Positions 6,438-28,929 of a stretch of 64,000 nucleotides of DNA are shown one piece after another; position 1 is the first letter of the stretch; each line of letters starts with the position of its first letter. The position numbers and the translations under genes were made by a program. Under the pieces are notes generated by a model. That model saw nothing but the letters and a program-made list of their open reading frames with translations. It ran no database searches and was not told where the DNA came from. The stretch lies in IMG/VR virus record IMGVR_UViG_3300023202_000061; one strand, 5' to 3'. This DNA is from a virus. Lineage: Duplodnaviria; Heunggongvirae; Uroviricota; Caudoviricetes.

Positions 6438-6563
6438 GAAAGAAAATCCTTGACTTATTGTTGTTTTCACACTAACCTACTAATACTTCATCAAAGAAGT
6501 GTAGGACATGAAGTGTTTCTCTTGTCGAGGGATGCTACCTGACCAAAACCTTTCACAGTGACA

Positions 6564-6608
6564 ACATTCCCAGCGAGGGAATCGTCACAACAACCACGGA
6601 GAGTGATT
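6564..6608 (+). promoter_or_regulatory. conserved 45-nt leader (hairpin TTCCCagcgaGGGAA, then GGAGAG RBS) upstream of the NMNAT-Nudix gene
   Basis: near-identical copy at 8700-8744 upstream of the NAMPT gene. Confidence 0.6.
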
Positions 6609-7703
6609 ATGAGTGATAAACCCAAAGTGGGTGTCTTTATCGGACGCCTTCAACCTGTACATAATGCACATCTCGCCGTCATTCGTTTGGCGTTATCGGA
6701 GATGGATAAATTGGTCATCATTCTTGGCTCTGATTGCCAAGCTAAGACCGTAAAGAACCCATGGACCTCTGCTGAGAGGATGGCGATGTTGAATCGTTGT
6801 CTGACTCCAGAGGAGAGGGAGCGAGTAGCAGTAGTTCCTGCAAAGGATTACCTCTACAATAATAACCTATGGCTTTCTGCTTTGCAGAGTTCACTGTCTC
6901 GCGTCTACTTTATAAGTAGAGCTAGAGGACAAGCAGAGGTTGTATACAAAGAGGACAATACTCGTGATGAGTGGATTGATCTCGATGACTGTGATGTAAC
7001 TCTTTACGGACATGACAAGGATCGTTCAACATTCTACTTGCACCTTTTCCCACAATGGACTTTGAAGGAAACGGGAGAGATTGGAGGGAACATCTCTGCA
7101 ACGCAAGTTCGCGGTATGTTTTTCCATAAAGACTCTCTCGATATTCGTCGTCATGTTCCAGAGCCTGTTTTCGAACAGCTTCACGGAGAGATTGGTACTG
7201 AAGAATATGAGCGTCTTTACCAAGAATATCGTCACATTTCTGAGTACAAGCAGATGTGGTCGAACACTCCGTACCCTGTTTCATTCATTACTACCGACGC
7301 TGTGGTTATCAAGAGCGGTCACGTTCTTGTAGTTAAGCGTCGGGGGTATCCTGGAAAGGGGTTGCTTGCACTTCCTGGCGGGTTCTTGAATCCAAAGGAG
7401 CAAGTAATCAACGGATGTATCCGTGAGCTGAAAGAAGAGACTTGCATTCAGATCCCTAAGGATGAGCTTCAAAAGAGAATTATTGATGAAAAAGTATTCG
7501 ACCACCCTGAAAGATCTCTTCGTGGCCGTACCATTACCCATGCTTTCTGTATTGATTTAGGTTCTGGTACACTGCCTAAAGTAAAGGGTGACGACGATGC
7601 AGAGCATGCTTTCTGGATGCCTATTCGTGATGTTCTGCGTAACGAAGAGCAGTTCTTTGAGGACCACTTTCACATCATCAATTACTTTTGCGTGAGGAGA
7701 TGA
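6609..7703 (+). CDS. nadM: bifunctional NMN adenylyltransferase / Nudix ADP-ribose pyrophosphatase (NadM-Nudix, NatV-like)
   Basis: N-terminal nucleotidyltransferase motif GRLQPVHNAHL; C-terminal Nudix box GGFLNPKEQVINGCIRELKEETCI; ATG at 6609 with GGAGAG RBS. Confidence 0.88.
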   Translation: MSDKPKVGVFIGRLQPVHNAHLAVIRLALSEMDKLVIILGSDCQAKTVKNPWTSAERMAMLNRCLTPEERERVAVVPAKDYLYNNNLWLSALQSSLSRVYFISRARGQAEVVYKEDNTRDEWIDLDDCDVTLYGHDKDRSTFYLHLFPQWTLKETGEIGGNISATQVRGMFFHKDSLDIRRHVPEPVFEQLHGEIGTEEYERLYQEYRHISEYKQMWSNTPYPVSFITTDAVVIKSGHVLVVKRRGYPGKGLLALPGGFLNPKEQVINGCIRELKEETCIQIPKDELQKRIIDEKVFDHPERSLRGRTITHAFCIDLGSGTLPKVKGDDDAEHAFWMPIRDVLRNEEQFFEDHFHIINYFCVRR

Positions 7704-7704
7704 T

Positions 7705-8250
7705 ATGAAAGATGTAAAGTATACATTCTTTTGGGCTGAGCCCACATGTCGTTCCTGTCCATTCTCGCAATGGATGGAGTCTGAATTCATCGTTGATGAT
7801 ATTGCTTACAATGGTGCCGAGCAATACATGATGGCAGGCAAAGCAAGACTTTTTGGTGATGAAGAAACACTTGCTAAGATCATGGGTGCCAAACACCCCG
7901 GACAACAAAAGAAACTTGGCCGTGAGGTCAAGGGTTTTGATCCTGTAAAGTGGGATAAGCACTGTCGTCAAATCGTTCTGAAGGGTAACCTTGCTAAGTT
8001 CACACAGAACAGAGTTCTGAAGAACGCCCTCAAGGATACTATTGGAACCTTTCTGGTAGAATCATCACCCTATGACAAGGTGTGGGGAATTGGAATTGGT
8101 ACATGTGACCCGGATCGTTTGGATCCATCTAAATGGAAAGGTACCAACTATCTCGGTGAGGTACTGACTGTTATTCGAAGGGATCTTTTCAAGGACCCTG
8201 AAGATGAGCAATTCAAGTTTGGTTGGGAGGAGATTGACAATGTGGAGTGA
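7705..8250 (+). CDS. NADAR-family (YbiA-like, DUF1768) protein
   Basis: FFWAEP...AEQYMMAGKARLF...WGIGIG pattern typical of NADAR domains. Confidence 0.7.
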   Translation: MKDVKYTFFWAEPTCRSCPFSQWMESEFIVDDIAYNGAEQYMMAGKARLFGDEETLAKIMGAKHPGQQKKLGREVKGFDPVKWDKHCRQIVLKGNLAKFTQNRVLKNALKDTIGTFLVESSPYDKVWGIGIGTCDPDRLDPSKWKGTNYLGEVLTVIRRDLFKDPEDEQFKFGWEEIDNVE

Positions 8251-8351
8251 TGTAAAAGCGGTGGAGTCATCTAACAAAGATGTTCTCAAGTATGTCTTTG
8301 AAAAGGACAATGCTGTAGCTGAGTCGGTACTTTACAAGTATCCAACCTCAT

Positions 8352-8747
8352 AATAGAACTGGCCATGGAAAAGTTGGGGTACAATCTTTTATCACATTAA
8401 AAACAATGCAAAAAGAAGAGGTATACCATTTGAAATAACAGCTGAACAGATTAGTGATCTTTTTGAAAAGCAAATGGAAAGTGCTTAATATCTGGAGTTG
8501 ATATTGTTTTAGTTAAAAACTATAGAGACAATAACAAAAACAATACAGCGTCTTTAGATAGAATCGATAATTCAAAAGGATACACAATTGACAATATTCA
8601 ATGGGTTCATAAAGTGGTAAACATCATGAAAAACAAATTAACCGCTGAAGAACTTCTGACATGGTGTCAGAAAATAGTTAAAAACCAAAACAAGTCTCAA
8701 CATTCCCAGGGAGGGAATCGAGACAACAACACGGAGAGTGTAACATG
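8352..8747 (+). pseudogene. degraded HNH homing endonuclease (frameshifted fragments)
   Basis: frame A ...NNAKRRGIPFEITAEQISDLFEKQ stops at 8476; a second frame gives NGKCLISGVDIVLVKNYRDNNKNNTASLDRIDNSKGYTIDNIQWVHKVVNIMKNK, the HNH_3 C-terminus also seen in the 61294 gene. Confidence 0.55.
8700..8744 (+). promoter_or_regulatory. second copy of the conserved 45-nt leader, upstream of NAMPT
   Basis: ACATTCCCAGGGAGGGAATCGAGACAACAACACGGAGAGTGTAAC matches 6564-6608 at about 39 of 45 positions. Confidence 0.6.
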
Positions 8748-10187
8748 AGAAACGTAATTAATAGAATCGAGGATATTCCTAACAACCACTGTCTGAGAAC
8801 AGACAGCTACAAACTATCTCACTGGGTTCAGTACCCAGAAGGAACCACCAGAATGATGAGCTACTTCGAATCCAGAGGCGGCCCATTCAAAGAGTGCACG
8901 CTCTTTGGTCTACAATACCTCTTACATAAGTACCTTGCTATTCCTGTTACCAAGGAAAGTGTAGATTACACAGAGAGGTTTGCACAAGCTCATGGAGAGC
9001 CTTTCAATCGTGCTGGCTGGGATCACATCCTTAATAAGTACAATGGTAGGCTTCCTGTAAAGATCAGAGCTATCAAAGAGGGAACTATTGTTCCTGTTCA
9101 GAATGTTCTGCTTACCATCGAATGTGATGATCCTGAGTGCTTCTGGATTGTGAGTTATCTAGAGACTATGCTTGTTCGTCTGTGGTACTCTAGCACGATT
9201 GCTACCACATCTCGTGAAAGCAAGAAGATTATCACGAAGTACTGGAAGATGACATCGGACGAACCTATCGAGAGCTTGCTGTTCAAGTTGCACGACTTTG
9301 GTGCTCGTGGCGTTACATCGGAAGAGCAGGCTCGCCTCGGCGGCGCAGCTCACCTTTTGAGCTTCCTTGGCTCTGACACCATGGAAGGTATCGAGATGGC
9401 TAATCATTACTACCGCTGTGCAATGGCTGGGTTTTCTATCCCGGCCAGTGAACACAGCACGGTTAGCATGTGGGGACGTTATGGTGAATTCAAGATGTAC
9501 GACAACTATGTTGATCAGTACCTCACCAAGCGTGAAGTACCAGAAGGTGTACCTAAGCTTGCAGCTTGTGTAAGTGATACATACAACATCTACGAGGCTG
9601 TGAAGTACTGGTGCAGCCCAGAGGTGGTGAAAAAACTCAAGGAAAGCGGAGGAACGCTTGTTATCAGGCCTGACTCTGGTGACCCGCTTGAGGTTCTTCC
9701 TAAGATTTTCCGCATCTTGGAGAAGGCTCTGGCTGATGAGGTAAAGGTGAACTCTAAAGGTTTCAAGGTACTACCTCCTTACATCAGAGTCATCCAGGGT
9801 GACGGAATCGATATGCAATCAATGGAAGAGATCATCAAGACTCTTACTGGATTGAAATGGAGTATTGATAACATCGCGTTTGGTAGTGGTGGCGGATTGC
9901 TTCAGAAGGTCAATCGAGACACTCAGAAATGGGCGTTCAAATGCTGTGCAGCAATGGTTGATGGTAAGTGGGTTGATGTCCGTAAGGACCCAATCACCGA
10001 TCCTGGTAAGCAAAGCAAAGCTGGTCGTTTGGATCTCATCTGTGAAAGTGATGTCTTTAGAACTGTCGCTCTTGAAGAAGGTCAAGATGAGCACCCCGAC
10101 AGCGTGCTTGTGACTGTTTTTGAAAACGGAGACATCCTATTCGACACCACTTTTGACGAATGCAGAGCACGAATGGAGGCAGCATGA
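8745..10187 (+). CDS. nadV: nicotinamide phosphoribosyltransferase (NAMPT/NadV)
   Basis: 480 aa; DSYKLSHWVQYPEGTT and NAMPT-like architecture throughout. Confidence 0.9.
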   Translation: MRNVINRIEDIPNNHCLRTDSYKLSHWVQYPEGTTRMMSYFESRGGPFKECTLFGLQYLLHKYLAIPVTKESVDYTERFAQAHGEPFNRAGWDHILNKYNGRLPVKIRAIKEGTIVPVQNVLLTIECDDPECFWIVSYLETMLVRLWYSSTIATTSRESKKIITKYWKMTSDEPIESLLFKLHDFGARGVTSEEQARLGGAAHLLSFLGSDTMEGIEMANHYYRCAMAGFSIPASEHSTVSMWGRYGEFKMYDNYVDQYLTKREVPEGVPKLAACVSDTYNIYEAVKYWCSPEVVKKLKESGGTLVIRPDSGDPLEVLPKIFRILEKALADEVKVNSKGFKVLPPYIRVIQGDGIDMQSMEEIIKTLTGLKWSIDNIAFGSGGGLLQKVNRDTQKWAFKCCAAMVDGKWVDVRKDPITDPGKQSKAGRLDLICESDVFRTVALEEGQDEHPDSVLVTVFENGDILFDTTFDECRARMEAA

Positions 10188-10543: not shown

Positions 10544-10809
10544 TGATGAAAACAATAGCTAAGATAGTTGTAAAGGCCAGTGAACTTCATGAGAATGGGT
10601 TTCTCAAGCCTAAGCTCGAATGTCTTAGCAAACACATGGTACTGGGCTCTTGGTTTGGCTGGAATGTGTGCATCACACGAGCTGTACCGGAGCCCAGACC
10701 GGCACCTTCCGAAGAAGAACAAGATGAGATGGAAGAGTTGGCGGTTGCCAATGGAATTCCTCTTACCAAGGAAGACAGAGAATGGCTGAAGGTTCCAAAG
10801 GAAAGCTGA
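10543..10809 (+). CDS. hypothetical acidic protein
   Basis: 88-aa ORF, ATGA overlap with upstream gene. Confidence 0.4.
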   Translation: MMKTIAKIVVKASELHENGFLKPKLECLSKHMVLGSWFGWNVCITRAVPEPRPAPSEEEQDEMEELAVANGIPLTKEDREWLKVPKES

Positions 10810-12059
10810 GTAGAGTAGCTCAGCTTAAGGATAAATATCCTGACCAAGCTGATAGCGCATTAGATATTGCCGATCCAAAGCACAAGAACAAATATCTTCT
10901 TTGGATTGGTAAACAGCTTCATAATGGCCACAACAGGCCAGATATCACTGCTACGATCAGGGAGTTTCACAAACAACCATCAAAGTTTGAACACTCTGAT
11001 ATTTACAGATATGAAGATCTGAAAACTCTTGAGGATGAAATCAAGAATCTTGACAAATCCAGGCGTCAAAAAGAAAAAGACATCAAGGATATCTTCACCA
11101 AGGTCATTCATGATAATGATGATTATCTTTTGATTCGTGTAGATTCAAAAGACGCCATTCTATATTATGGGAAGGGCTCTCAGTGGTGTATTACAATGAA
11201 TGACTCTACCTACTGGGAAGATTATCATTGGGATGGAAATATATTCTATGTTCTTATACACAAGAAAAGTAACTCCAAACATGCAATTCAAAGAACATCA
11301 GCTTTGGGTGCGGTTATGTGGGATGTGCACGATAGGAGCCAAGATCTTCATAAGTGGGTAACTCAATCTACGTCTCGCAAAAACGGTTTGGAACATATTG
11401 TTTTGAAGCTTTATCAAGATGATATGCCAACAACCTGGACTGATATTAGGACTGGTAAAAGTAAGAGAGTTGATGTTGTTGAGTGGTTGAAAACCCAACA
11501 CAAAAGCACAAGACAGTTCATTTACAAAAAACACCCGTATCTAACCATTGATACCTCAAACGCAAACCCTCTCAAGAACATGTCAAATCTGAAAGAGAAG
11601 GAGTTGAGAGATCTAAATGATGAAGACCCTTCATTTCTTCCAAGGGTCATTGAGGCCCTTAAGGAGAATAAGAGAGAGTATTCAAAGCTTCGCATTGAGG
11701 TTGGGAATGTTTTTCCAGATGCAAGAAAAGATATCTATACTGAGCTTCAGCTGTTTGATCTTAAAGCATCTGAAAATCCTGACATGTGGGTTTCACTCAT
11801 CTTTAGTGATGATCAGCAAAAATGGCAGAAAGCTGTTCGAAAAGCTCCCCTAGATGTGCTGCTTTTATCTCTTGGTCGAGTTCGCGATATATCGAAAGTT
11901 ATCCGTATCAAAGAACGAATCTTTGCCGAGGTGAATCAGACCGAACTTCTCAAATGGGTTGGGAAGATTTGCGGAGATCACGACATCAAGATTCCAAGTG
12001 AATTATGGGAGAATAAGTATGAAAATCGTAAAGGAAGGAGAGCCAGAACTCGTAGATAA
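10782..12059 (+). CDS. hypothetical protein
   Basis: 425-aa ORF. Confidence 0.5.
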   Translation: MAEGSKGKLSRVAQLKDKYPDQADSALDIADPKHKNKYLLWIGKQLHNGHNRPDITATIREFHKQPSKFEHSDIYRYEDLKTLEDEIKNLDKSRRQKEKDIKDIFTKVIHDNDDYLLIRVDSKDAILYYGKGSQWCITMNDSTYWEDYHWDGNIFYVLIHKKSNSKHAIQRTSALGAVMWDVHDRSQDLHKWVTQSTSRKNGLEHIVLKLYQDDMPTTWTDIRTGKSKRVDVVEWLKTQHKSTRQFIYKKHPYLTIDTSNANPLKNMSNLKEKELRDLNDEDPSFLPRVIEALKENKREYSKLRIEVGNVFPDARKDIYTELQLFDLKASENPDMWVSLIFSDDQQKWQKAVRKAPLDVLLLSLGRVRDISKVIRIKERIFAEVNQTELLKWVGKICGDHDIKIPSELWENKYENRKGRRARTRR

Positions 12060-19417: not shown

Positions 19418-19489
19418 TGGGGTATCGTCCAACGGTTAGGACAGCAGGCTTTGACCCTGTCAATGTGAGTTCGAATCTCGCTACCCCAT
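19418..19489 (+). tRNA. tRNA-Gln(TTG)
   Basis: acceptor TGGGGTA/TACCCCA, anticodon loop CTTTGAC, T-arm GTGAGTTCGAATCTCGC. Confidence 0.7.
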
Positions 19490-19586
19490 CTACCGACGAC
19501 AAGTTGGTTTGGACTCTGCAACAGTCAGGGTTCTTATCGAGGGATATGCATTTACCTCTCGGTCATTGACAACTGAATACCTTTTA

Positions 19587-19672
19587 TGCATCAGCGACAG
19601 AGTTGGAGAGCTGTGGCAGTCTGTAAAACTGTTCCCTTCGGGGTGAATAGGTTCGAATCCTATATGATGCAC
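19587..19672 (+). tRNA. tRNA-Tyr(GTA), long variable arm
   Basis: acceptor TGCATCA/TGATGCA, anticodon loop CTGTAAA, extra arm TCCCTTCGGGGTGAA. Confidence 0.55.
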
Positions 19673-19740
19673 ACCTTGAACTTTTTGTTTGGTAGGGTTA
19701 TGAACTCTAACATTCGAATGGTCAAACATTAAGTTCACCT

Positions 19741-19811
19741 AGGTCCATAGTGTAACGGTAGCACGAGAGCCTCCAAAACTCTTTGTCCGGGTTCAAATCC
19801 TGGTGGACCTG
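19741..19811 (+). tRNA. tRNA-Trp(CCA)
   Basis: acceptor AGGTCCA/TGGACCT, loop CTCCAAA, T-arm CCGGGTTCAAATCCTGG. Confidence 0.65.
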
Positions 19812-19815
19812 CTAA

Positions 19816-19883
19816 GTAACGCGCATCGAGATCATTCATCAAACTTGAAAATTGAAAACGAGGGTCTCCACTTTTTTCGTTAC
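19816..19883 (+). repeat. A/B cassette 1 (motif A 19816-19840, motif B 19862-19883), empty
   Basis: GTAACGCGCATCGAGATCATTCATC ... GGGTCTCCACTTTTTTCGTTAC; outer ends GTAACG/CGTTAC are inverted repeats. Confidence 0.6.
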
Positions 19884-19890
19884 TATTTAT

Positions 19891-19963
19891 CCTTCGGTAG
19901 CTGAGGTGGCTTTAGCGCTTGTCTGAAGAACAGGAGATGTCGGTTCGACTCCGACCCGAAGGG
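19891..19963 (+). tRNA. tRNA-Phe(GAA)-like
   Basis: acceptor CCTTCGG/CCGAAGG, loop CTGAAGA, T-arm GTCGGTTCGACTCCGAC. Confidence 0.6.
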
Positions 19964-19980
19964 CTTATATGATAACACAT

Positions 19981-20063
19981 GCTGATGTGGTGGAACGGTA
20001 GACACGGTAGGTTGAGGGCCTGCTGCTCGAAAGGGCGTGAGAGTTCGACTCTCTCCATCAGCA
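19981..20063 (+). tRNA. tRNA-Leu(GAG), type II
   Basis: acceptor GCTGATG/CATCAGC, loop TTGAGGG, long variable arm. Confidence 0.6.
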
Positions 20064-20065
20064 CT

Positions 20066-20146
20066 GCGAGAATGTAGAGCAAAGGCGGCTCAGGGGTCTC
20101 ATAAGCCCTTCCATTCGGCACGACAGGTTCGATTCCTGCTCTCGCA
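20066..20146 (+). tRNA. tRNA with CAT anticodon (Met/Ile), atypical
   Basis: acceptor GCGAGA/TCTCGC, loop CTCATAA, T-loop TTCGATT; extra nucleotides. Confidence 0.35.
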
Positions 20147-20190
20147 ACCATCCCGAAATCTAGTTTAACGGAGAGAACGCTGGTTTACAT

Positions 20191-20262
20191 TGTAGGATAG
20201 GCAATCGGTACGCCGGCTGCTGTTAACCAGTGACGATGGGGGTTCGAGTCCCTCTCCTACAG
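20191..20262 (+). tRNA. tRNA (anticodon region GCTGTTAACCAG, probably Asn GTT)
   Basis: acceptor TGTAGGA/TCCTACA, T-arm GGGGGTTCGAGTCCCTC; anticodon stem ambiguous. Confidence 0.4.
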
Positions 20263-20354
20263 CGAGAGAAGATATTCGTAGGTTCGAATCCTACCATGGC
20301 ACGACTCGGGAGGGTACGGTCATGTGGCTGGAGGAAACAAGTACTTCTCGTTAT

Positions 20355-20435
20355 TTCAGGGTGGCCGAGCGGTAAGGCAGCTGGCTGTTAACCAGTCGCA
20401 GAAATGCATCGCGGGTTCGAATCCTGCCCCTGGAG
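20355..20435 (+). tRNA. type-II-like tRNA, anticodon loop CTGTTAA (GTT?)
   Basis: acceptor TTCAGGG/CCCTGGA, D-arm GCCGAGCGGTAAGGC, extra hairpin GCAGAAATGC. Confidence 0.35.
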
Positions 20436-20436
20436 C

Positions 20437-20543
20437 AGAGTGATGGCGGAATGTGTAGTTGTAAGACTACCGGTAGACGCTAGGTTAGGCAAAAGCTGAA
20501 GTCGAGACAATTTGTCGTGGAGGTTCGAACCCTTCTCACTCTA
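20437..20543 (+). ncRNA. unusual 106-nt tRNA-like gene (canonical acceptor and T-arm, expanded interior)
   Basis: acceptor AGAGTGA/TCACTCT, T-arm GGAGGTTCGAACCCTTC; interior does not fold as a standard tRNA. Confidence 0.35.
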
Positions 20544-20547
20544 CTTA

Positions 20548-20722
20548 GATAACGCGCTTTAGAGGATCTTTCATCGGTAAAGCAAATGTATCATAAACAT
20601 TAGATTGTTGGTTCAAGTCCAACCCTCGCCACCAAACCTGTAAGGAATAAAGGAATACTTACAAGTTCAAATTTCGGCGAGGTAGCTAAATTAAACTCGG
20701 GTCTTCGCCCCTTTTCGTTATC
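20548..20722 (+). repeat. A/B cassette 2 (A 20548-20575, B 20699-20722) enclosing permuted tRNA-like halves
   Basis: 3' portion 20576-20634 (anticodon arm CAT, T-arm, acceptor-3' CCTCGCC-A-CCA), then 5' portion 20676-20698 (acceptor-5' GGCGAGG TA GCT...); the two acceptor strands are perfectly complementary. Confidence 0.55.
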
Positions 20723-20741
20723 TTATTGGTTCCATAGTTTA

Positions 20742-21023
20742 ATGGTAAAGAGAAGAGTAAAAAATACTAAACTAACTAGAGAACGTCATAGGGAGAAGAT
20801 AGCGGATATTAAAAACAATCATCCATGTGTTGATTGTGGTAAGAAGTACCCGCATTATGTTTTACAATTTGATCATTTAAAAGACAAATCATGTAATGTC
20901 TCTAATATGCCGGGTAATGTTTCATGGAAAAAAATTCAGAAAGAAATAGATAAATGTTAAATTGTATGTTCTAACTGTCATCAAATTAGAACATGGGAAC
21001 GAAGACAATCAGGGTATAGCTGA
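20742..21023 (+). pseudogene. HNH endonuclease, interrupted by in-frame TAA at 20958-20960
   Basis: HPCVDCGKKYPHYVLQFDH...KC [TAA] IVCSNCHQIRTWER: the canonical C..CH half of the HNH motif lies after the stop, and the frame runs into tRNA-Pro. Confidence 0.5.
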
Positions 21024-21082
21024 GCTTGGTTTAGCGCCACGTTTGGGACGTGGAGACGGGGGTTCGAATCCCTCTTCCCTGA
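21010..21082 (+). tRNA. tRNA-Pro(TGG)
   Basis: acceptor CAGGGTA/TTCCCTG (one mismatch), anticodon stem CCACG/CGTGG, loop TTTGGGA, encoded CCA. Confidence 0.65.
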
Positions 21083-21158
21083 CCAGAGTGTAATGTCAAT
21101 TTGGTAGACGGCCTGCCTTGGACGCAGGAGGTTGCGAGTTCGAATCCCGCCACTCTGA
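21083..21158 (+). tRNA. tRNA, loop CTTGGAC (anticodon TGG?), abuts previous tRNA
   Basis: acceptor CAGAGTG/CACTCTG, anticodon stem CCTGC/GCAGG; T-stem has a mismatch. Confidence 0.4.
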
Positions 21159-21238
21159 CCGAGTTCTTCTAATGAGGTGAAGATTAAATTTGATGACCGA
21201 GACAGATTAACTTCTGCGAATTTTCAAGCTCCCACAAT

Positions 21239-21318
21239 GCTGATGTGATGAAACTGGTAAACATAGCACGCTTAGAACGTGCCGCTTCGGCTTGGGGGTT
21301 CGAGTCCCTCCATCAGCA
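21239..21318 (+). tRNA. tRNA-Leu(TAG), type II
   Basis: acceptor GCTGATG/CATCAGC, anticodon stem GCACG/CGTGC, loop CTTAGAA, variable hairpin GCTTCGGC. Confidence 0.65.
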
Positions 21319-21501
21319 CAAACTCTTATCAAAGGAGATAATCATGAAGTCAATCGTTACACTCGTCATCTGCGTATGATCTTGCATACGCAGAGAGTAC
21401 AAGGTCATACGCGCCTCAGTAAACCATTCTGGTAACTGGGACAGACCGCTCCCTAGTTCACCTATCTCTGCACCCATCCAAGCGGTGTAAGGTGAACACA
21501 A

Positions 21502-21762
21502 ATGAGTAAGCTAGGAAAGCTCAGAGCATCTGAGCAACGTAAAGCAGCCAAGAGGGCACGTAAAGATTCCAGAAGAAGGTTCTGGGAAAATCTAATGGCT
21601 CAAGGGCTAAATCGTAAAGTCAAGAATTATGAACTTGAGAAGATGCATGGACATGATCATCCGAGAGGTCCTTGCGGAAACATAGGTTGTAAAAAATGTA
21701 ACCCACAAGAGTATAATCTCTTGACCCCACGATTGCTTCATGCAAAGAACAAACAGTCTTAA
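21502..21762 (+). CDS. hypothetical basic protein
   Basis: 86-aa ORF inside the tRNA array. Confidence 0.45.
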   Translation: MSKLGKLRASEQRKAAKRARKDSRRRFWENLMAQGLNRKVKNYELEKMHGHDHPRGPCGNIGCKKCNPQEYNLLTPRLLHAKNKQS

Positions 21763-21793
21763 TTGACCACGACGCCTGGAAGGGCGTCACCTT

Positions 21794-21866
21794 GGAAAGG
21801 TAGCTCAGCTGGTAGAGCATTTGGTTGAAGCCCAGAGTGTCGTTGGTTCGAATCCAACTCTTTCCA
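21794..21866 (+). tRNA. tRNA-Phe(GAA)
   Basis: acceptor GGAAAGG/TCTTTCC, D-arm GCTCAGCTGGTAGAGC, loop TTGAAGC. Confidence 0.7.
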
Positions 21867-21871
21867 CCGTG

Positions 21872-22051
21872 TAACGCGCACTAGAGATCTTTCATCGGTA
21901 TGTAAACCCCTGTGTCGTTAGTTCGAATCTAACCTGGGCCACAAGATCATTGCGATCCTAGACTCCTATCCCAGATAGGGACGGAGTTGCCTGGCCCGGT
22001 AGCTCAGTTGGTAGAGCAAGGAAAAAGCTTGGTCTCACCTCTTTTCGTTAC
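21872..22051 (+). repeat. A/B cassette 3 (A 21872-21896, B 22031-22051) enclosing permuted tRNA-like halves
   Basis: 3' portion ends GTTAGTTCGAATCTAAC CTGGGCC A (21917-21941); 5' portion GGCCCGG TA GCTCAGTTGGTAGAGCA (21993-22018); acceptor strands pair 7/7 with one G-U. Confidence 0.55.
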
Positions 22052-22058
22052 ACAATTT

Positions 22059-22131
22059 GTCCCCATAGATTAGCGGTTAAATCGCTTGGTTTTCACCCAG
22101 GAGATCGTCGGTTCGAATCCGACTGGGGATG
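22059..22131 (+). tRNA. tRNA-Glu(TTC)
   Basis: acceptor GTCCCCA/TGGGGAT, anticodon stem CTTGG/CCAGG, loop TTTTCAC. Confidence 0.65.
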
Positions 22132-22236
22132 CAAGGTTTAGAAGCAGGTTAGCAAATCGCGCGAATAGTGGTTCGAGTCCACACCTAAACTTAGTAGGAA
22201 AAGTGAAGTCTGCAGCTGAACAATTCCTGCGTCTAT

Positions 22237-22308
22237 GGGAGTAGATGGTCCGGTAGACCTGCTTCGCCTGATAAGCGAAGTGGCTAAGTTCAACTCTTAG
22301 TATTCCCA
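22237..22308 (+). tRNA. tRNA-Ile(GAT)
   Basis: acceptor GGGAGTA/TATTCCC, anticodon stem CTTCGC/GCGAAG, loop CTGATAA. Confidence 0.6.
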
Positions 22309-22309
22309 C

Positions 22310-22383
22310 TGGGGTAGACGATCCGGTAGATCTATTACGTCTGATAAATGTGATGCGCTTGAGTTCGACTCTCAGTACCCCAA
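22310..22383 (+). tRNA. tRNA-Ile(GAT), diverged second copy
   Basis: acceptor TGGGGTA/TACCCCA, loop CTGATAA, T-arm TTGAGTTCGACTCTCAG. Confidence 0.5.
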
Positions 22384-22424
22384 CTACGAAACCAAAGGTT
22401 TCTAAAGAAGCTTTGTCTTCATAT

Positions 22425-22492
22425 GGTGTGGTAGTTTTGGAAACAAACTTGGTTGTGACCCAGGTTAAGGGGTTCGATTCCCCGCTACACCC
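22425..22492 (+). tRNA. tRNA-His(GTG)
   Basis: acceptor GGTGTGG/CTACACC, anticodon stem CTTGG/CCAGG, loop TTGTGAC. Confidence 0.6.
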
Positions 22493-22497
22493 CACAT

Positions 22498-22582
22498 GGT
22501 AGGTCAAATCGATTGGCGACGAAAACTGTTTTGAAAACAGCCGAGCGTAACAGCCTTGGGGGTTCGATTCCCTCACCTACCG
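22498..22582 (+). tRNA. tRNA-Ser(TGA), type II
   Basis: acceptor GGTAGGT/ACCTACC, loop TTTGAAA, long variable arm. Confidence 0.55.
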
Positions 22583-22584
22583 CT

Positions 22585-22709
22585 AGACGCGCATCGAGGA
22601 GTGTTCATCGTTATGGGTGGTGAAACTGAGCATCACGCCGGACCCTAGCGGGTCCGTAGTTCTGGGTTCGAATCCCAGCCTATAACCTACTCTTTGAGTT
22701 TTTCGTCTA
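22585..22709 (+). repeat. A/B cassette 4 (A 22585-22609, B 22691-22709) enclosing a closed tRNA-like element
   Basis: interior 22610-22687 has 8-bp acceptor GTTATGGG/CCTATAAC, two hairpins and T-arm CTGGGTTCGAATCCCAG. Confidence 0.5.
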
Positions 22710-22711
22710 AT

Positions 22712-22786
22712 GGACCCTAAGCTAGATTGGAACAGCATCCGGTTCTTACCCGGAAGATATCCTCGGTTCGATTCCGAGAGGGTTCA
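22712..22786 (+). tRNA. tRNA-Lys(CTT)
   Basis: acceptor GGACCCT/AGGGTTC, anticodon stem TCCGG/CCGGA, loop TTCTTAC. Confidence 0.6.
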
Positions 22787-22815
22787 CTAAAATAATTTCG
22801 AACTATCTACTAATA

Positions 22816-23517
22816 TTGTCTCATACAGATATGATAGATAATGGTTCGATATGGTCTGAACAGAATTTCAGAAAAGCTGTTCAAAAAAGTAAAAATATTT
22901 CAGAAACATTAACAAGATTGGGATTAAATCCTCGTGGTAACTATAGAACGTTTCACAAGTATAAGAAAATCTATAGTATAGATACCTCTCATTTTCTTGG
23001 TAAAGATGAAAGATTAAAAATAGCCAGAGAGCAAAGAAAGATAACTAATCTTGATGAAATTTTAGTAAAAGATTCATTCTTTGCACCAAAGGGTCTAAAA
23101 AAGAGATTGATAGAAGAGGGGCATTTTGAATACAAGTGCTCAAGCTGTGAGATATCAGAATGGAAAGGTAAACCACTATCATTACAGATGGATCATATCA
23201 ACGGTGACAAATTTGATAACAGGATTGAAAACTTAAGGCTACTGTGTCCCAACTGTCATTCCCAAACTCCTACATTCTGTGGCAAGTCAAATAAATCAAA
23301 GCATGTTAAGTGTAAGTGCGGAAAGGAGATGTATTACAGTTCAACTCTTTGTAAAGAGTGCATTCTAAAGAATAGAAAAACCAAAATATCCTGGCCTAGA
23401 ATAGAATGGTTACAAGCAGAGGTTAAGAAGAGGGGGTTTGTAGCTGTAGGAAAAGAGTTAGGCGTTTCTGATAACGCCATCAGAAAACGAATACAAAAAA
23501 TTCGTAAGTCTGATTAG
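22816..23517 (+). CDS. HNH homing endonuclease
   Basis: HINGDKFDNRIENLRLLCPNCHSQT. Confidence 0.8.
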   Translation: MSHTDMIDNGSIWSEQNFRKAVQKSKNISETLTRLGLNPRGNYRTFHKYKKIYSIDTSHFLGKDERLKIAREQRKITNLDEILVKDSFFAPKGLKKRLIEEGHFEYKCSSCEISEWKGKPLSLQMDHINGDKFDNRIENLRLLCPNCHSQTPTFCGKSNKSKHVKCKCGKEMYYSSTLCKECILKNRKTKISWPRIEWLQAEVKKRGFVAVGKELGVSDNAIRKRIQKIRKSD

Positions 23518-23524
23518 GACTATT

Positions 23525-23549
23525 GGGGTTCGACTCCCTGGTAGCCCAC
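23525..23549 (+). other. orphan tRNA 3' fragment (T-arm GGGGTTCGACTCCC plus acceptor-3' TGGTAGCC-A) immediately after the HNH gene
   Basis: no matching 5' half nearby. Confidence 0.4.
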
Positions 23550-23550
23550 T

Positions 23551-23664
23551 GGAACGCGCCTTGTTGAGGTTTCATCTGGTGAAATGGAAAACACAATTGA
23601 CAACAAATCAATCAACTGCGGGTTCGACTCCCGCGATGGTTATACTCCTCTTCGCTCTTTCGTT
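23551..23664 (+). repeat. A/B cassette 5 (A 23551-23576, divergent B 23645-23664) with a degenerate tRNA-like interior
   Basis: interior TGGTGAAATGGAAAACAC...GCGGGTTCGACTCCCGC GATGGTTAT; the D-region resembles tRNA-Leu(CAA) at 31324. Confidence 0.45.
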
Positions 23665-23672
23665 CCAAATCT

Positions 23673-23753
23673 TGGGGTGTCATCTAACGGTAGGATGACA
23701 GGTTCTGATTCTGTTCATGCGGGTTCGATTCCTGCCACCCCAGCCCAAAACGT
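23673..23753 (+). tRNA. tRNA-Gln(CTG)
   Basis: acceptor TGGGGTG/CACCCCA, anticodon stem ACAGG/TCTGT, loop TTCTGAT. Confidence 0.6.
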
Positions 23754-23827
23754 ATTCATTCTGTCCGTGGTAACCAAAGGAGTGAATGGAACAAGGAGCC
23801 TGTACTTGGAAACTAATTCAGGTATAT

Positions 23828-23893
23828 TGAGGTATCGTCTAACGGTAGGACAACAGTCTCTGACATGTGGGAGTTCGAATCTCTCTACCTCAA
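23828..23893 (+). tRNA. tRNA, anticodon undetermined
   Basis: acceptor TGAGGTA/TACCTCA, D-arm GTCTAACGGTAGGAC, T-arm GGGAGTTCGAATCTCTC; anticodon stem does not pair cleanly. Confidence 0.4.
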
Positions 23894-23975
23894 CCATCGT
23901 CCCAGTGAGGGTTGAACTCCTTCCTGGTTGGGCTCATGAGCCCATAGCTTGCGCTTCAAGCTGGGACGTTTTCAT

Positions 23976-24048
23976 GCTAACGTGGTATAATGGCTATTAC
24001 GCTACTCTTGTAAAGTAGATGATGCAGGTTCGAGTCCTGTCGTTAGCT
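23976..24048 (+). tRNA. tRNA-Thr(TGT)
   Basis: acceptor GCTAACG/CGTTAGC, anticodon stem CTACT/AGTAG, loop CTTGTAA, encoded CCA. Confidence 0.65.
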
Positions 24049-24091
24049 CCAAATAAGTCGAGAAACTCTGGTAATACTGGAACAATTCATT

Positions 24092-24352
24092 ATGAGAATA
24101 TTTTATCTTTCATTAGTTTTCGTTTTAATTGGTTGTGGTAGTTACATGAATCCAACAACAGATGTAACACGTCCCACAGAACAACAGTTGCAGTCTTACC
24201 AAAATGTTTGGGTTTGTGAAGATGATCAGGGTGTTACTCTTTCTTGTGAGTACGACGCTGATTGTTGTGAAGATTTTTCCTGTGTAAAGGATCCTGCAGG
24301 AGGGCGTAAAGCAAAGCACTGCATTTACGATCCTAATGCGCCTAAAGAGTAA
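24092..24352 (+). CDS. small secreted lipoprotein with 6-Cys knottin-like spacing
   Basis: signal peptide with lipobox LIGC; Cys pattern C-x10-C-x6-CC-x4-C-x11-C. Confidence 0.5.
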   Translation: MRIFYLSLVFVLIGCGSYMNPTTDVTRPTEQQLQSYQNVWVCEDDQGVTLSCEYDADCCEDFSCVKDPAGGRKAKHCIYDPNAPKE

Positions 24353-24380
24353 AGGTTCGCAAGCACCTTGAGCTTGTAAA

Positions 24381-24451
24381 GGTCCCATAGTTTAATGGTA
24401 AAACAAGAGCTTGTCACGTTCTAGTTAGGAGTTCAATTCTCCTTGGGACCG
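24381..24451 (+). tRNA. tRNA-Asp(GTC)
   Basis: acceptor GGTCCCA/TGGGACC, loop TTGTCAC, T-arm AGGAGTTCAATTCTCCT. Confidence 0.7.
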
Positions 24452-24453
24452 CA

Positions 24454-24524
24454 GCGGGTTGGAGCAGTCTGGTAGCTCGGTAGGCTCATAACCTACAGGC
24501 CGCAAGTTCAAATCTTGCACCCGC
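24454..24524 (+). tRNA. tRNA-Met(CAT), elongator-type
   Basis: acceptor GCGGGTT/ACCCGC, anticodon stem GTAGG/CCTAC, loop CTCATAA. Confidence 0.6.
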
Positions 24525-24530
24525 AACTAA

Positions 24531-24633
24531 AGCAACGCGCATCGAGATCATTCATCATTAGTTCGATTCTAATATCCTCCTCCAAGTATGGGGGATAGCC
24601 CATGGGGGCTGTTGGTCTTGCCTCTTTCGTTGT
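24531..24633 (+). repeat. A/B cassette 6 (A 24531-24555, B 24613-24633) enclosing permuted tRNA-like halves
   Basis: 3' portion ATTAGTTCGATTCTAAT ATCCTCC (24556-24579); 5' portion GGGGGAT AG CCCATGGGGGCTG (24590-24612); acceptor strands pair 7/7 with one G-U. Confidence 0.5.
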
Positions 24634-24675
24634 TTAACAATCTAAGATTGTCTGGAGGCCTTAGGGCCTCTAATT

Positions 24676-24749
24676 TGGCCTCATAGTGTAACGGATTAGC
24701 ACGAGACGCTTCGAACGTTTTAGTCCGGGTTCGAATCCTGGTGGGGCTG
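24676..24749 (+). tRNA. tRNA with loop CTTCGAA (anticodon TCG, Arg?) on a Trp-like scaffold
   Basis: acceptor GGCCTCA/TGGGGCT; overall about 80% identical to tRNA-Trp at 19741. Confidence 0.5.
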
Positions 24750-24768
24750 CATAACAGGGCATACAGAT

Positions 24769-25161
24769 ATGCTCACTATTGTGGATGTTAAGAGAGAATT
24801 TGATCAAGAATACAAGAAGTCTGGTATTCAGCACTTTCTCAATGATCTTTATCATGGTACAGATAGGTTGAACTGTGATGTTCGACCAGTAGCTGGCTCT
24901 GATGCATTCTTCGGATCTTATGATTACTTCGGATCTAATATTGATCAGACTGAAACTAATCCACCAGCTGGTCCATATTGGAGAATGCAACACCTTGACT
25001 CCATGAAAGAATTTCTTGATAACAACAGAGAATACAGAACTAAGAAGATCAAGGAAATGAATAAAAAGAACCCTGGTGTTAATCAAGAAAGGGTAGCGTC
25101 TAAAAGTGATGAGATTTTAAAGATGGCTTCTATCTTTGAAGAAGCAACTATGGTCCCGTAG
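24769..25161 (+). CDS. hypothetical protein
   Basis: 130-aa ORF. Confidence 0.5.
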   Translation: MLTIVDVKREFDQEYKKSGIQHFLNDLYHGTDRLNCDVRPVAGSDAFFGSYDYFGSNIDQTETNPPAGPYWRMQHLDSMKEFLDNNREYRTKKIKEMNKKNPGVNQERVASKSDEILKMASIFEEATMVP

Positions 25162-25225
25162 CATAACTGGATAATGCACCAGTCTACGAAACTGACGATT
25201 GCAGGTTCGAATCCTGCCGGGACTG
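25152..25225 (+). tRNA. tRNA-Arg(ACG)
   Basis: acceptor GGTCCCG/CGGGACT, D-arm GCATAACTGGATAATGC, loop CTACGAA. Confidence 0.65.
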
Positions 25226-25306
25226 CCGGGAGACGGTTGTGTGTCCGTCTGAGATAAAAACCAAAACACTCCGAAGTGTCGTGACACATTGTGGCACTTC
25301 GTTCAT

Positions 25307-25375
25307 GGGCTTGTGTGACGGGTCACAGGTTTCCCTTGCACGGAAACTTTGCGGGTTCAACTCCCGACAGGTCCA
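25307..25375 (+). tRNA. possible tRNA-Ala(TGC), atypical short D-arm
   Basis: anticodon stem GTTTCC/GGAAAC, loop CTTGCAC, T-arm CGGGTTCAACTCCCG; acceptor GGGCTTG/CAGGTCC with G-U pairs. Confidence 0.3.
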
Positions 25376-25444
25376 CCGGGTTTTCATATGATAGTATTGC
25401 AGTAAGAGCGCTATATCGATACGTTTATGTGAGAACCCACCAAT

Positions 25445-25516
25445 GCTGCCATAGTACAGCGGCTAGTACGCTAAGTTGGTATCTTAGTAACCCCAGTTCG
25501 ACTCTGGGTGGCAGCT
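25445..25516 (+). tRNA. tRNA-Thr(GGT)
   Basis: acceptor GCTGCCA/TGGCAGC, anticodon stem CTAAG/CTTAG, loop TTGGTAT, encoded CCA. Confidence 0.65.
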
Positions 25517-25521
25517 CCAAT

Positions 25522-25593
25522 GCAGGATTAACTCAGCGGCAGAGTGCCCTCTTGACTAGTGGGTGGCCAGAGGTTCGAGTCCTCTATCCTGCA
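25522..25593 (+). tRNA. tRNA-Val(GAC)
   Basis: acceptor GCAGGAT/ATCCTGC, D-arm ACTCAGCGGCAGAGT, loop TTGACTA. Confidence 0.55.
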
Positions 25594-25746
25594 CTGCGTA
25601 GTATCAAATGATGTGATGTTAGACGTAACAGATCATTCAGGGTACTTCGTGTTTGGCCAAAACAACGGAACGTTCTGTAGCTTAGTTGGCAGAGCAGCGG
25701 TTCACCCCGTGTACGAGTGGTTCGAATCCCTCCAGAATGTTCAAAT

Positions 25747-25826
25747 CCGGGTGATGTCCTAATGGCAGGACGCCAGTCTTCCAAACTGGAGCGAAAGCAT
25801 AGCGGGTTCGATTCCCGTCACCTGGT
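25747..25826 (+). tRNA. tRNA-Gly(TCC), extended variable region
   Basis: acceptor CCGGGTG/CACCTGG, anticodon stem CCAGT/ACTGG, loop CTTCCAA. Confidence 0.55.
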
Positions 25827-25854
25827 CTATTCAGACATACTCTTATGAGGAAGC

Positions 25855-26034
25855 TATTCTTTGTAGTTGTATTGTTTGGTATTCTGGCTCCAGGACCCTG
25901 CAGCCCTTCTCCTCGCCCTCCTTTCGGAACCGGGATGGGTGGAGGAGGATCTTTTCATCCGTACCATCTTGGTGGATACGGTGGAGAATGTGGAGGCTTC
26001 GGAGGGTTGCCAGATGAATAATGGTCCAGTCGTC
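25855..26034 (+). CDS. small Gly-rich secreted peptide (59 aa, below track cutoff)
   Basis: MRKLFFVVVLFGILAPGPC... signal-like N-terminus then GGGGSFHPYHLGGYGGECGGFGG. Confidence 0.3.
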
Positions 26035-26104
26035 AAGTGGTAAGACGCCTCTTTTACAAGGAGGTTATCGGGGGTTCGATTCCCTCCTGGACTACTACCA
26101 ATAC
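26034..26104 (+). tRNA. tRNA-Val(TAC)
   Basis: acceptor GGTCCAG/CTGGACT, anticodon stem CCTCT/GGAGG, loop TTTACAA. Confidence 0.6.
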
Positions 26105-26106
26105 CA

Positions 26107-26802
26107 ATGCATTTAGTCATGAACTATGATAAGTTACTGAAACTCGCTGGTATTTATGAGCAGGATACTGGTTCTGCAACTACTGGAGCAGAAGCCCTTG
26201 AGACGGCTCAACGTGATCCTTCTAGGGTTGAAGAGATGCAGCGCATCATTCAGTACTCTTTAGGAGTTCATGACTCTCAATTGGCTTACAAGGCTCTTCA
26301 AAAGGGTATTCAGTTTGCCAATACTATCGAGGGTGCAGATAAGGAAGCCCTGTACAAAGCGGTTCTTGAAACAAGAAAGCCTGATTTTGTAACCTCCTTT
26401 GCTTCTCGTGTTTCTGGACTGGATAACTCCAATCCGAATATTTACAGTGTACTTTCTAGAAACCCTCAATACCTTTACCAATTTGCTAAGGGTGTGAAGG
26501 GTGCTGACACTGATAGGATCTACAAAACCCTTCTTAATATCTACAAGAAGGATCCGAACAATCGATACCTTGTTTGGGCCGATCAAGTAAAGAATATTGC
26601 AGATAAGAGATTGCTACAAGAGCAATACCCAGCTTCAAACCCCGCAGAGCTTTTCCCATTCAAACCAAAAGAAGAGCCAGAAGATGCAGCCCAGGAGGGT
26701 CCGGTTCCACAGGATGAAGAGGTTGCTGAAAAGAAAGAAATAACAGCATCTCTTTTTCAAAAACTGTTATCTCTTGGTATTGTAAATAAGTCGAGAGTGT
26801 AA
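26107..26802 (+). CDS. hypothetical protein
   Basis: 231-aa ORF. Confidence 0.5.
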   Translation: MHLVMNYDKLLKLAGIYEQDTGSATTGAEALETAQRDPSRVEEMQRIIQYSLGVHDSQLAYKALQKGIQFANTIEGADKEALYKAVLETRKPDFVTSFASRVSGLDNSNPNIYSVLSRNPQYLYQFAKGVKGADTDRIYKTLLNIYKKDPNNRYLVWADQVKNIADKRLLQEQYPASNPAELFPFKPKEEPEDAAQEGPVPQDEEVAEKKEITASLFQKLLSLGIVNKSRV

Positions 26803-26811
26803 AGTCATTGT

Positions 26812-27447: not shown

Positions 27448-27815
27448 TCTACGAAGTAATCGAAATTGTCGGCCAACTCTTCGTATAGCGGCCAAGCGCC
27501 ATTGAGGCGCTTGTAGCAGCGGTAGTAGCTGGCCCTTCCAATTCCACTGTAGAAGGAAATGTCACAGGGGATTGACTCCGGGAACATGACTCTGGTAAAG
27601 AAGACCCAGTCCCCTATGTCCTGAAAGAGTTGGAAATTGTGTTTCTGCTTTGCATCAAACCAAAGAAGAACAACTGATTTATCAGAGAGATCCTTTTCGC
27701 CTTTCAAGTACTTTCGCAAAGTAGACTTGATGTATGCGGACGTTTCCCAATGTTCGCTCTTAAGGTCTACCCAACGGTCTAAAACTGACTCGAAACTCTC
27801 TGTGCACAATTTCAT
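27417..27815 (-). CDS. hypothetical protein (minus strand)
   Basis: 132-aa ORF in a region with no competing + ORF. Confidence 0.4.
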   Translation of the reverse strand: MKLCTESFESVLDRWVDLKSEHWETSAYIKSTLRKYLKGEKDLSDKSVVLLWFDAKQKHNFQLFQDIGDWVFFTRVMFPESIPCDISFYSGIGRASYYRCYKRLNGAWPLYEELADNFDYFVDQVSTGKDFI

Positions 27816-28828: not shown

Positions 28829-28857
28829 TATAAAAGAGGGTGGAAACACCCTCGCAT

Positions 28858-28929
28858 TCCTGGGTAGCTCAATGGCAGAGCTTTCGGCTGTTAACCGGAT
28901 GGTTGTAGGTTCGACCCCTACCCCAGGAG
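28858..28929 (+). tRNA. tRNA-Asn(GTT)
   Basis: acceptor TCCTGGG/CCCAGGA, D-arm GCTCAATGGCAGAGC, loop CTGTTAA. Confidence 0.7.

Follow-up and report, generated by a model that had tools for sequence, protein, structure and literature searches.

A 64,000-nt stretch of DNA from a virus of the class Caudoviricetes (IMG/VR record IMGVR_UViG_3300023202_000061), hereafter the window, carries an NAD+ salvage module in which two enzyme genes are each preceded by a short structured leader. These leaders, their distribution among related phages and the control they may exert are the subject of this analysis. The genes and leaders of the module are as follows (NMN, nicotinamide mononucleotide; NMNAT, NMN adenylyltransferase):

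6558..6608, + strand: leader 1, 5' of the NMNAT-Nudix gene
6609..7703, + strand: NMN adenylyltransferase/Nudix gene, bifunctional (NadM-Nudix, NatV-like), 364 aa; Pfam CTP_transf_like 1e-12 and NUDIX 1.4e-14
7705..8250, + strand: NADAR-domain gene, 181 aa; Pfam NADAR 1.8e-46
8694..8744, + strand: leader 2, 5' of the NAMPT gene
8745..10187, + strand: nicotinamide phosphoribosyltransferase gene (NAMPT/NadV), 480 aa; Pfam NAMPT_N 2.3e-29 and NAPRTase 5.3e-47

A NAMPT with both the NAMPT_N and NAPRTase domains occurs here together with an NMNAT-Nudix fusion, the combination that marks a NARP2-type module. Among 477 phage records, the best match of the NMNAT-Nudix protein is that of phage LucasX, annotated as NadM/ADP-ribose (ADPR) pyrophosphatase (41.6% identity over 97% of the query), and annotated phage NAMPTs share 44-49% identity with the window NAMPT (tblastn). 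The gene between the two enzymes, earlier named as NADAR (YbiA-like), is confirmed as such by its Pfam match; it begins 1 nt past the stop codon of NMNAT, with no separate leader. The order NMNAT-NADAR-NAMPT is also found in a syntenic relative, locus L012, which lacks the endonuclease insertion seen in the window and whose NAMPT leader overlaps the 3' end of NADAR.

Architecture and distribution of the two-hairpin leader

Near-identical 45-nt sequences on the two enzyme genes had been reported in an earlier reading of this DNA (the original prediction), and both are present exactly as quoted, directly 5' of the ATGs. Copy 1 covers 6564-6608 and is followed by the ATG at 6609, and copy 2 covers 8700-8744 and is followed by the ATG at 8745; they agree at ~38/45 positions, with one 1-nt indel. 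The anatomy then proposed, a hairpin followed by a CA-rich tract and a GGAGAG ribosome-binding site (RBS), is present as part of a larger structure. The hairpin, given as 5 bp (TTCCC/GGGAA), is in fact 6 bp long (ATTCCC/GGGAAT). An outer 5-bp stem, P1, was overlooked, since the 45-mer begins 3' of its upstream strand, which is not the same in the two copies. The Shine-Dalgarno (SD) sequence is itself the loop of a mini-hairpin, P3, which had also been missed (copy 1, CAC-GGAGA-GTG; copy 2, ACAC-GGAGA-GTGT). The full leader of ~51 nt consists of P1, a 3-nt bulge, the hairpin P2 with an AGNGA pentaloop, an unstructured A/C-rich linker of 4-6 nt in the window copies, and P3 with the SD in a GGAGA loop. 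Its elements, all on the + strand, are:

Leader 1, P1: GTGAC 6558-6562 / GTCAC 6584-6588
Leader 1, bulges: 5' AAC 6563-6565; 3' C 6583
Leader 1, P2: ATTCCC 6566-6571 / GGGAAT 6577-6582; pentaloop AGCGA 6572-6576
Leader 1, linker: AACAAC 6589-6594
Leader 1, P3: CAC 6595-6597 / GTG 6603-6605; SD loop GGAGA 6598-6602; spacer ATT 6606-6608
Leader 2, P1: GTCTC 8694-8698 / GAGAC 8720-8724
Leader 2, bulges: 5' AAC 8699-8701; 3' C 8719
Leader 2, P2: ATTCCC 8702-8707 / GGGAAT 8713-8718; pentaloop AGGGA 8708-8712
Leader 2, linker: 8725-8728
Leader 2, P3: ACAC 8729-8732 / GTGT 8738-8741; SD loop GGAGA 8733-8737; spacer AAC 8742-8744

The P1 stems of the two leaders differ at two positions on both strands, i.e., by compensatory changes. 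RNA folding gives -16.8 kcal/mol for leader 1 (z -3.3, frequency of the minimum-free-energy structure 0.79) and -18.2 kcal/mol for leader 2 (z -3.8, frequency 0.85), with the described structure dominant in both. When the 64-kb window was searched for further copies, the core ATTCCCAGNGAGGGAAT was found at 6566 and 8702 only and the 10-mer ACGGAGAGTG at 6596 and 8731 only, so that the element is not a frequent generic one. A covariance model run over the window returned the two leaders (37.1 bits for leader 1 and 37.3 bits for leader 2, E 3e-7 each) and one weak partial hairpin. The latter, at 23890-23938 (18 bits, E 0.05), has a CCCAGTGAGGG apex and lies directly 3' of a tRNA gene with neither an SD hairpin nor an open reading frame (ORF), and is probably a chance match. 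Hairpins of at least 4 bp with the SD in the loop are rare at the remaining gene starts of the window.

Two observations concern the history of the window copies. The stretches 6558-6588 and 8694-8724 agree fully in P2, in both bulges and in the loop frame; the leaders of L012 are unlike each other in P2 (ATCTC/GGGAT vs AACC/GGTT), and their A-rich loops (AAUAAA and AGUAAAU) are unusual. This pattern suggests gene conversion between the leaders of the window lineage, or a concerted loop change in L012. In addition, a public metagenome contig of 1340 nt (L020; LFUG01009685.1) is identical to the window over leader 2 and the first 53 NAMPT codons, and therefore the same or a nearly identical phage is represented in that data set.

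Relatives with 48-67% protein identity were first gathered by NAMPT similarity from IMG/VR and metagenomes. Each of the two genes in them has on its 5' side a C-AGNGA-G hairpin, then ACGGAGAGTG, then the ATG, with stem sequences that differ, and the 10-mer is found before the two NAD genes and nowhere else. A strict DNA pattern search of IMG/VR returned 48 stretches with ~36 further instances, all of them 1-7 nt before an NMNAT or NAMPT ATG. Matches to the long-gap form of the pattern are due to chance and have no NMNAT or NAMPT gene beside them. Single-sequence folds give P1-P2 and P3 throughout, and P2 and P3, with compensatory pairs, were also recovered by RNAalifold when 45 distinct instances were simply aligned with MAFFT.

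A covariance model, R1, built from seven gap-free seeds gave 59 matches. In the R1 alignment, 93.2% of the cells in paired columns are paired, a figure inflated somewhat by the fitting of the alignment to the model, vs 66.3% after shuffling (reached in 0/500 shuffles) and 32-51% when the alignment is slid. Double changes occur in 13 of the 15 pairs, and the covariation score is 0.60 vs 0.16. The P3 stems covary as well (CAC/GUG, UAC/GUA, GAC/GUC, ACGU/ACGU, GCAAAA/UUUUGC, UUCUAA/UUAGAA), and P3 ends 0-7 nt before the ATG, so that a structure over the SD is kept by compensatory change at a fixed distance to the start. The pentaloop is A-N-N-G-A in general and AGNGA in the window, and the P3 loop is GGAG(N). 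The leader is a structured RNA whose stems covary freely, use G-U pairs and are locked to the SD and the start codon. In many NMNAT-type leaders, a further hairpin, P0, abuts P1 on its upstream side, with covarying stems (GACGG/CCGTC, GATGGC/GCCATC, GTGGC/GCCAC) and a loop such as CAAUCC (L008:3799-3816, L022:4051-4067, L042, L047, L053 and others); the window copy lacks it.

Because ascertainment by DNA pattern is biased, a set of 80 loci was retrieved by NMNAT protein similarity. All loci with at least ~45% identity to the window NMNAT carry the window-type leader. An SD-in-loop hairpin of at least 4 bp stands before 81 of 118 NAD genes vs 17 of 404 other ORFs (p 2e-48), and both hairpins stand before 56 of 118 vs 1 of 404 (p 1e-40). 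In the single exception (L110:1711-1761), a perfect leader with both hairpins precedes the gene for a 213-aa phrog_1843 protein (function unassigned), immediately upstream of NMNAT. A weaker element (E 0.25) with P1-P2 (AGUGA) and CAC-AGA-GUG precedes a 56-aa ORF without assigned function at L024:7577-7624 (= L092:4821-4868). This element and the one in L110 may be further members of the regulon. Within 6 kb on either side of the leaders, only NMNAT and NAMPT are common to the motif-bearing loci, and no third conserved gene was found there as a possible regulator. The claim of a cis element specific to the two salvage genes is thus borne out, both by its uniqueness in the window and by the association across genomes.

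More distant phages carry variants of the same layout. R1 gave no match in LucasX, Mx1, RsoM2USA, ACP17, XacN1, RcXuper or LR756502; several of these proved on inspection and folding to carry a diverged AUAGA variant, and R1 is therefore too narrow for the whole family. This variant, a G-AUAGA-C apex hairpin followed by P3 stems of quite different sequence around GGAG, is found before both NAD genes in Synechococcus phage B23, Phaeobacter phage MD18, Rhodobacter phage RcXuper and Xanthomonas phage LucasX. In Ralstonia phage RSP15 the leader loops are AGGGA and ACGGA. In these five phages an SD-loop hairpin of 4-7 bp is present on the two NAD genes only. Another distant variant has a promoter-proximal hairpin with a C-AGAGA/AGUGA-G apex and a P3 of GCAAAA-GGAGU-UUUUGC, and 'type B' leaders are immediately preceded by, but do not contain, a TTGACA-N17-TATAAAT promoter. 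P3 is kept in K64-1 and fHe-Yen9-04, where the upstream loops are of the GUAGUA type, and P3 alone is recognisable in Marzo and Miro. ValKK3, which is KVP40-like, shows no more than a rudimentary hairpin (GGG-GAG-CCC), and nothing of the architecture is recognisable in 44RR.

The apex class (C-AGNGA-G, G-AUAGA-C, ACAGA or GUAGUA) differs between phage lineages, and the NMNAT and NAMPT phylogenies are both congruent with it. Within a genome the two leaders tend to agree: an identical apex loop occurs on both in 11 of 33 genomes vs 4.7 +/- 1.7 after shuffling, though the stems differ. For instance, L147 has ACAGA twice, LucasX has AUAGA twice and GGAAC twice, and K64-1 has GUAGUA-like loops twice.

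Outside phages, a strict-pattern scan of bacteria and archaea (185,579 species, one genome each) returned 10 matches, nine of them chance matches and one real; the latter, L070, lies upstream of NMNAT on a contig binned as Terracidiphilus. The leader family thus seems to be essentially confined to phages. The region had no megablast match among 50,697 phage records and the exact 19-mer of the hairpin core is absent from IMG/VR, so that a mobile repeat with a conserved sequence is ruled out.

The leader was also sought among described RNA families. Scans against Rfam 15 with cmscan returned no riboswitch family at the gathering threshold (window, L001 and L002) or at E <= 10 (both leaders), and no matching family at E <= 1 on five cultured-phage loci; only chance matches to snoRNAs or CRISPR repeats were obtained. 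Full-text literature searches on nadV, natV and NARP2 yielded no description of a riboswitch, hairpin or leader, and there is no mention of a leader, or of regulation of the pathway, in the NARP paper or in the survey of viral NAD+ systems. Judged from these comparisons, the two-hairpin leader is apparently a widespread, undescribed cis-regulatory RNA family on phage NAD+-reconstitution genes.

Gene remnants and wider genome context

The interval between NADAR and leader 2 is occupied by two gene remnants:

8240..8353, + strand: 5' fragment of a radical-SAM gene, pseudogene remnant, ~37 codons followed by two stops
8357..8748, + strand: decayed HNH/endonuclease VII-like homing-endonuclease gene, in frames 8357-8485 and 8467-8748

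The first of these was not part of the original prediction, which described a dead HNH gene in two frames; a truncated and frameshifted endonuclease remnant is indeed present, and shares the interval with the radical-SAM fragment. The fragment, MWSDVKAVESSNKDVLKYVFEKDNAVAESVLYKYPTS before its two stops, aligns by eye to the N-terminus of a 301-aa ORF (L093:3539-4444; ...ANVLKYVFERGDAVAESVLYKYPT...CPVGCRFC) that follows NMNAT in that locus, and a larger radical-SAM-like ORF lies in the corresponding place in L087. The window gene appears to have been cut off by the endonuclease insertion.

The endonuclease remnant lacks its N-terminus and is frameshifted. Its joined frames match phrog_3322 'endonuclease' (7.9e-29) over profile positions 55-156 of 162, and also match phrog_1035 endonuclease VII and phrog_3118 HNH; a Pfam search of the remnant gave no match. 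G+C content is 28-35% across it vs ~45% in the flanks. No intact ORF covers the full profile, and the gene is a pseudogene. Its final frame runs through leader 2 and ends in an ATGA overlap with nadV at 8745-8748, as originally described.

Downstream of NAMPT, a 425-aa ORF at 10782-12059 (...DPKHKNKYLLWIGKQL...) has a homologue directly after NMNAT in L089 (3598-4932), and is a conserved neighbour without an assigned function. The window contains 44 tRNA genes, in a dense array at 19418-34311 and scattered further on at 46042-61256, including an amber-suppressor-type tRNA(CUA) at 50605-50677, and a tmRNA gene at 60878-61256 with the tag ANDNAFAPAALAA. The 44 tRNA genes and the tmRNA imply that the window derives from a very large phage genome. 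ARAGORN also reports two tRNA-like genes with the four-base anticodons gtta and tagc (20191-20263 and 22611-22687), which could be frameshift-suppressor-like or mis-calls.

Proposed control of NAD+ salvage

The original prediction named a promoter, an RNA processing site and a translational operator as possible functions. The evidence favours the last of these and speaks against the promoter, no sigma-70 site overlapping the leaders. From its structure and position, the leader is most likely a translational operator. Each salvage gene would have its own structured mRNA leader acting on translation initiation, in which the RBS would lie within P3, a hairpin that is closed or can be recognised. 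The two conserved loops would be read by a trans-acting partner that sets the frequency with which P3 opens, so that NMNAT and NAMPT would be throttled together. With no third conserved gene near the leaders, the partner would be one of the two enzymes, a metabolite or a host component of universal occurrence.

Among these, autogenous control by a putative partner that is NMNAT-Nudix or NAMPT itself is ranked first, tentatively. The enzyme would then repress translation of its own pathway, and repression would plausibly be relieved or strengthened by the occupancy of the enzyme with NAD+, NMN, ADPR or ATP. An enzyme is favoured because simple conserved-loop hairpins are typical protein sites, because two hairpins would fit a dimeric enzyme, and because the apex class varies by lineage yet matches on both leaders of a genome. 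Unrestrained expression of the NARP2 pathway is reported to be toxic and costly and to consume phosphoribosyl pyrophosphate (PRPP) (NARP paper), and tight dosing would make sense on that account under every reading considered here. Pairing of the linker with the SD (ACUC/GAGU) is predicted in some NMNAT-type leaders but neither in the window nor in NAMPT-type leaders.

Several points weigh against such control, beside the inflated pairing figure mentioned above. The effect of the leader on translation of the two genes is a prediction from sequence, and we know of no report of RNA-binding activity for NMNAT-Nudix or NAMPT. P3 of the window has just 3-4 bp and would be a weak block by itself. 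The sharing of apex loops within a genome could stem from shared ancestry together with free loop positions 2 and 3, and since both phylogenies are congruent with the leader class, neither enzyme is singled out as the partner. The spread over phages of very different hosts equally fits a universal small ligand.

The leader as a small riboswitch, which would bind NAD+, NMN, ADPR, nicotinamide or PRPP directly and join or release the P2 loop and the SD loop so as to close or open the RBS, is possible, if doubtful. In one version the NAD+-bound state would be OFF, and the pathway would be on only when the host depletes NAD+. The element is a conserved structured leader exclusively tied to two enzymes of one pathway, each controlled separately, a trait of riboswitches in general. 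It has no conserved accessory gene, and its occurrence in phages of cyanobacteria, of alpha-, beta- and gamma-proteobacteria and probably of Acidobacteria suits a universal ligand. In size and layout, a bulged hairpin followed by the RBS, it is comparable to the NAD+-II (pnuC) riboswitch (PMC7749635). Nevertheless, it comprises two plain hairpins and a linker variable in length and sequence, with no conserved internal loop, junction or pseudoknot found that could form a pocket. Inspection showed no consistent complementarity of the SD with the 5' arm of P2 or with the bulge that would allow a pseudoknot, nor of the P2 loop with the P3 loop. A conserved apex that differs by lineage (CAGNGAG, GAUAGAC, ACAGA, GUAGUA) would be unusual for the pocket of a fixed ligand, and no Rfam riboswitch model matches even at the loosest threshold used.

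NAD+ depletion is a major bacterial anti-phage strategy, and NAMPT with NMNAT (NARP2) is a known phage countermeasure. The further idea that the leader turns on these counter-defence enzymes only upon NAD+ depletion by a host defence system is doubtful. If true, an RNA sensor of abortive-infection immunity would be built into both genes of the pathway.

A constitutive element that sets expression without any sensor is unlikely. The SD hairpin would fix a low translation of two costly or toxic enzymes, and the upstream hairpin would stabilise the mRNA 5' end or, with the C/A-rich linker, provide a standby platform for the ribosome. Such a role would agree with the toxicity and cost of NARP2 expression, with the 'type B' promoter, just downstream of which P2 would be the 5'-terminal stem-loop of the transcript, and with the retention of P3 only in the distant phages Marzo and Miro. 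However, a weak SD would give low expression without any structure, and fixed attenuation leaves unexplained the strict conservation of A1, G4 and A5 of the P2 loop, the invariant 'AC-GGAGA-GU' of type A and the constant placement of a strong GGAG exactly in the loop.

That the element acts in DNA or marks a transcript boundary, as a promoter, a palindromic operator (e.g., for NrtR), a terminator or an RNase processing site, is very improbable. The original prediction had raised the promoter and the RNA processing site, and related phages without the leader do have a TTAGTGT-N7-ACAC palindrome upstream of NAMPT. Pairing in the leader, however, is kept while the stem sequence changes freely and G-U pairs are used, the signature of an RNA structure and not of a DNA palindrome read by a protein, and the element is always locked to the SD and ATG. 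No sigma-70-like promoter (-35/-10) overlaps 6558-6608 or 8694-8739, the number in the window as a whole being that of shuffled sequence, and there is no terminator-like site (hairpin plus U-tract) at the leaders, where P1-P2 is followed by the A/C-rich linker. As for the palindrome itself, it is conserved upstream of NAMPT in relatives that lack the RNA leader, in the form TTAGTGT-N7-ACAC(TA), at L003:4940-4990, where it is in tandem, L006:4935-4965, L007:4935-4960 and L017:745-770. Its GT-N7-AC core is presumably that of NrtR operators, and it suggests DNA-level control of NAMPT in other phages.

Finally, a recent local duplication or a functionless by-product of homing-endonuclease insertion, which the identity of P2 and both bulges between the window copies and the decayed endonuclease abutting copy 2 might have indicated, is hardly credible: L012 has both leaders without the endonuclease, each of them the orthologue of the window leader on that gene (P1 GTGAC/GTCAC for NMNAT, TCTC/GAGA for NAMPT), and dozens of other phages have both, a conservation across genomes that refutes it. 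Hence the view of a 45-mer duplicated within the window does not hold; the leaders are old paralogues that stand 5' of orthologous genes in many phages whose proteins are 40-67% identical.

As a translational operator, the leader would offer a concrete, testable handle on how phages dose or time the NARP2 countermeasure. Variants occur in cultured phages with tractable hosts (B23, RcXuper, MD18, LucasX and RSP15) and are therefore directly bench-testable. If one of the enzymes is the partner, the leader would be a new case of enzyme-mRNA autoregulation; if a metabolite is, it would represent a riboswitch class found only in phages.

Comparison with known systems

The loops were compared with iron-responsive-element-like, boxB-like, sarcin-ricin-loop-like, T-loop and CsrA-site motifs, none of which fits the loop consensus.

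Among the riboswitches, NAD+-I (nadA motif) and NAD+-II (pnuC motif, Rfam RF03013) both resemble the present leader as short 5' leaders of NAD+-related genes. The NAD+-II riboswitch is a stem with an internal loop and a 3' tail that sequesters the RBS, and has been proposed as a translational OFF switch (PMC7749635). In contrast, the leader described here has no Rfam match, its RBS is the loop of its own hairpin and not a strand of a pseudoknot, its bulge is not conserved in sequence, its conserved nucleotides lie in two pentaloops, and it is phage-borne with the exception of one bacterial-binned contig.

The leader shares with guanidine-II (mini-ykkC) riboswitches a pair of short hairpins, each with a C-G pair closing a conserved loop, a variable linker between them and the position of the second hairpin beside the RBS. 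The guanidine-II loops are ACGR tetraloops that pair with each other. The loops of the present leader, ANNGA (AGNGA/AUAGA) and GGAGN, are purine-rich, not complementary and not of the ACGR kind, and no Rfam match was obtained.

Protein-read operators offer a different parallel. E. coli thrS, T4 gene 43 and the MS2-type coat-protein operators are conserved-loop hairpins at or beside the SD or the start codon, and in thrS a dimeric enzyme binds two hairpins in competition with the ribosome. The present leader differs in standing on two different genes, its sequence is unrelated to theirs, and its binding protein is putative. In CsrA/RsmA sites, a short hairpin that overlaps the SD presents GGA in its loop and a second site lies in an upstream hairpin, and the CACGGA of P3 is the core of the hcnA RsmE site. 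Most P2 loops of the leader family, however, lack GGA (AGAGA, AGUGA, AUAGA), so that the motif is not found in both sites; moreover, the leader is confined to two genes and also occurs in phages of cyanobacteria and alpha-proteobacteria.

The genes themselves resemble those of the NARP2 or KVP40 NadV-NatV pathway, in which NAMPT is likewise combined with a bifunctional NMNAT-Nudix and a NADAR gene is a frequent neighbour. The proteins of the module are ordinary members of that pathway, and the new part is the RNA leader.

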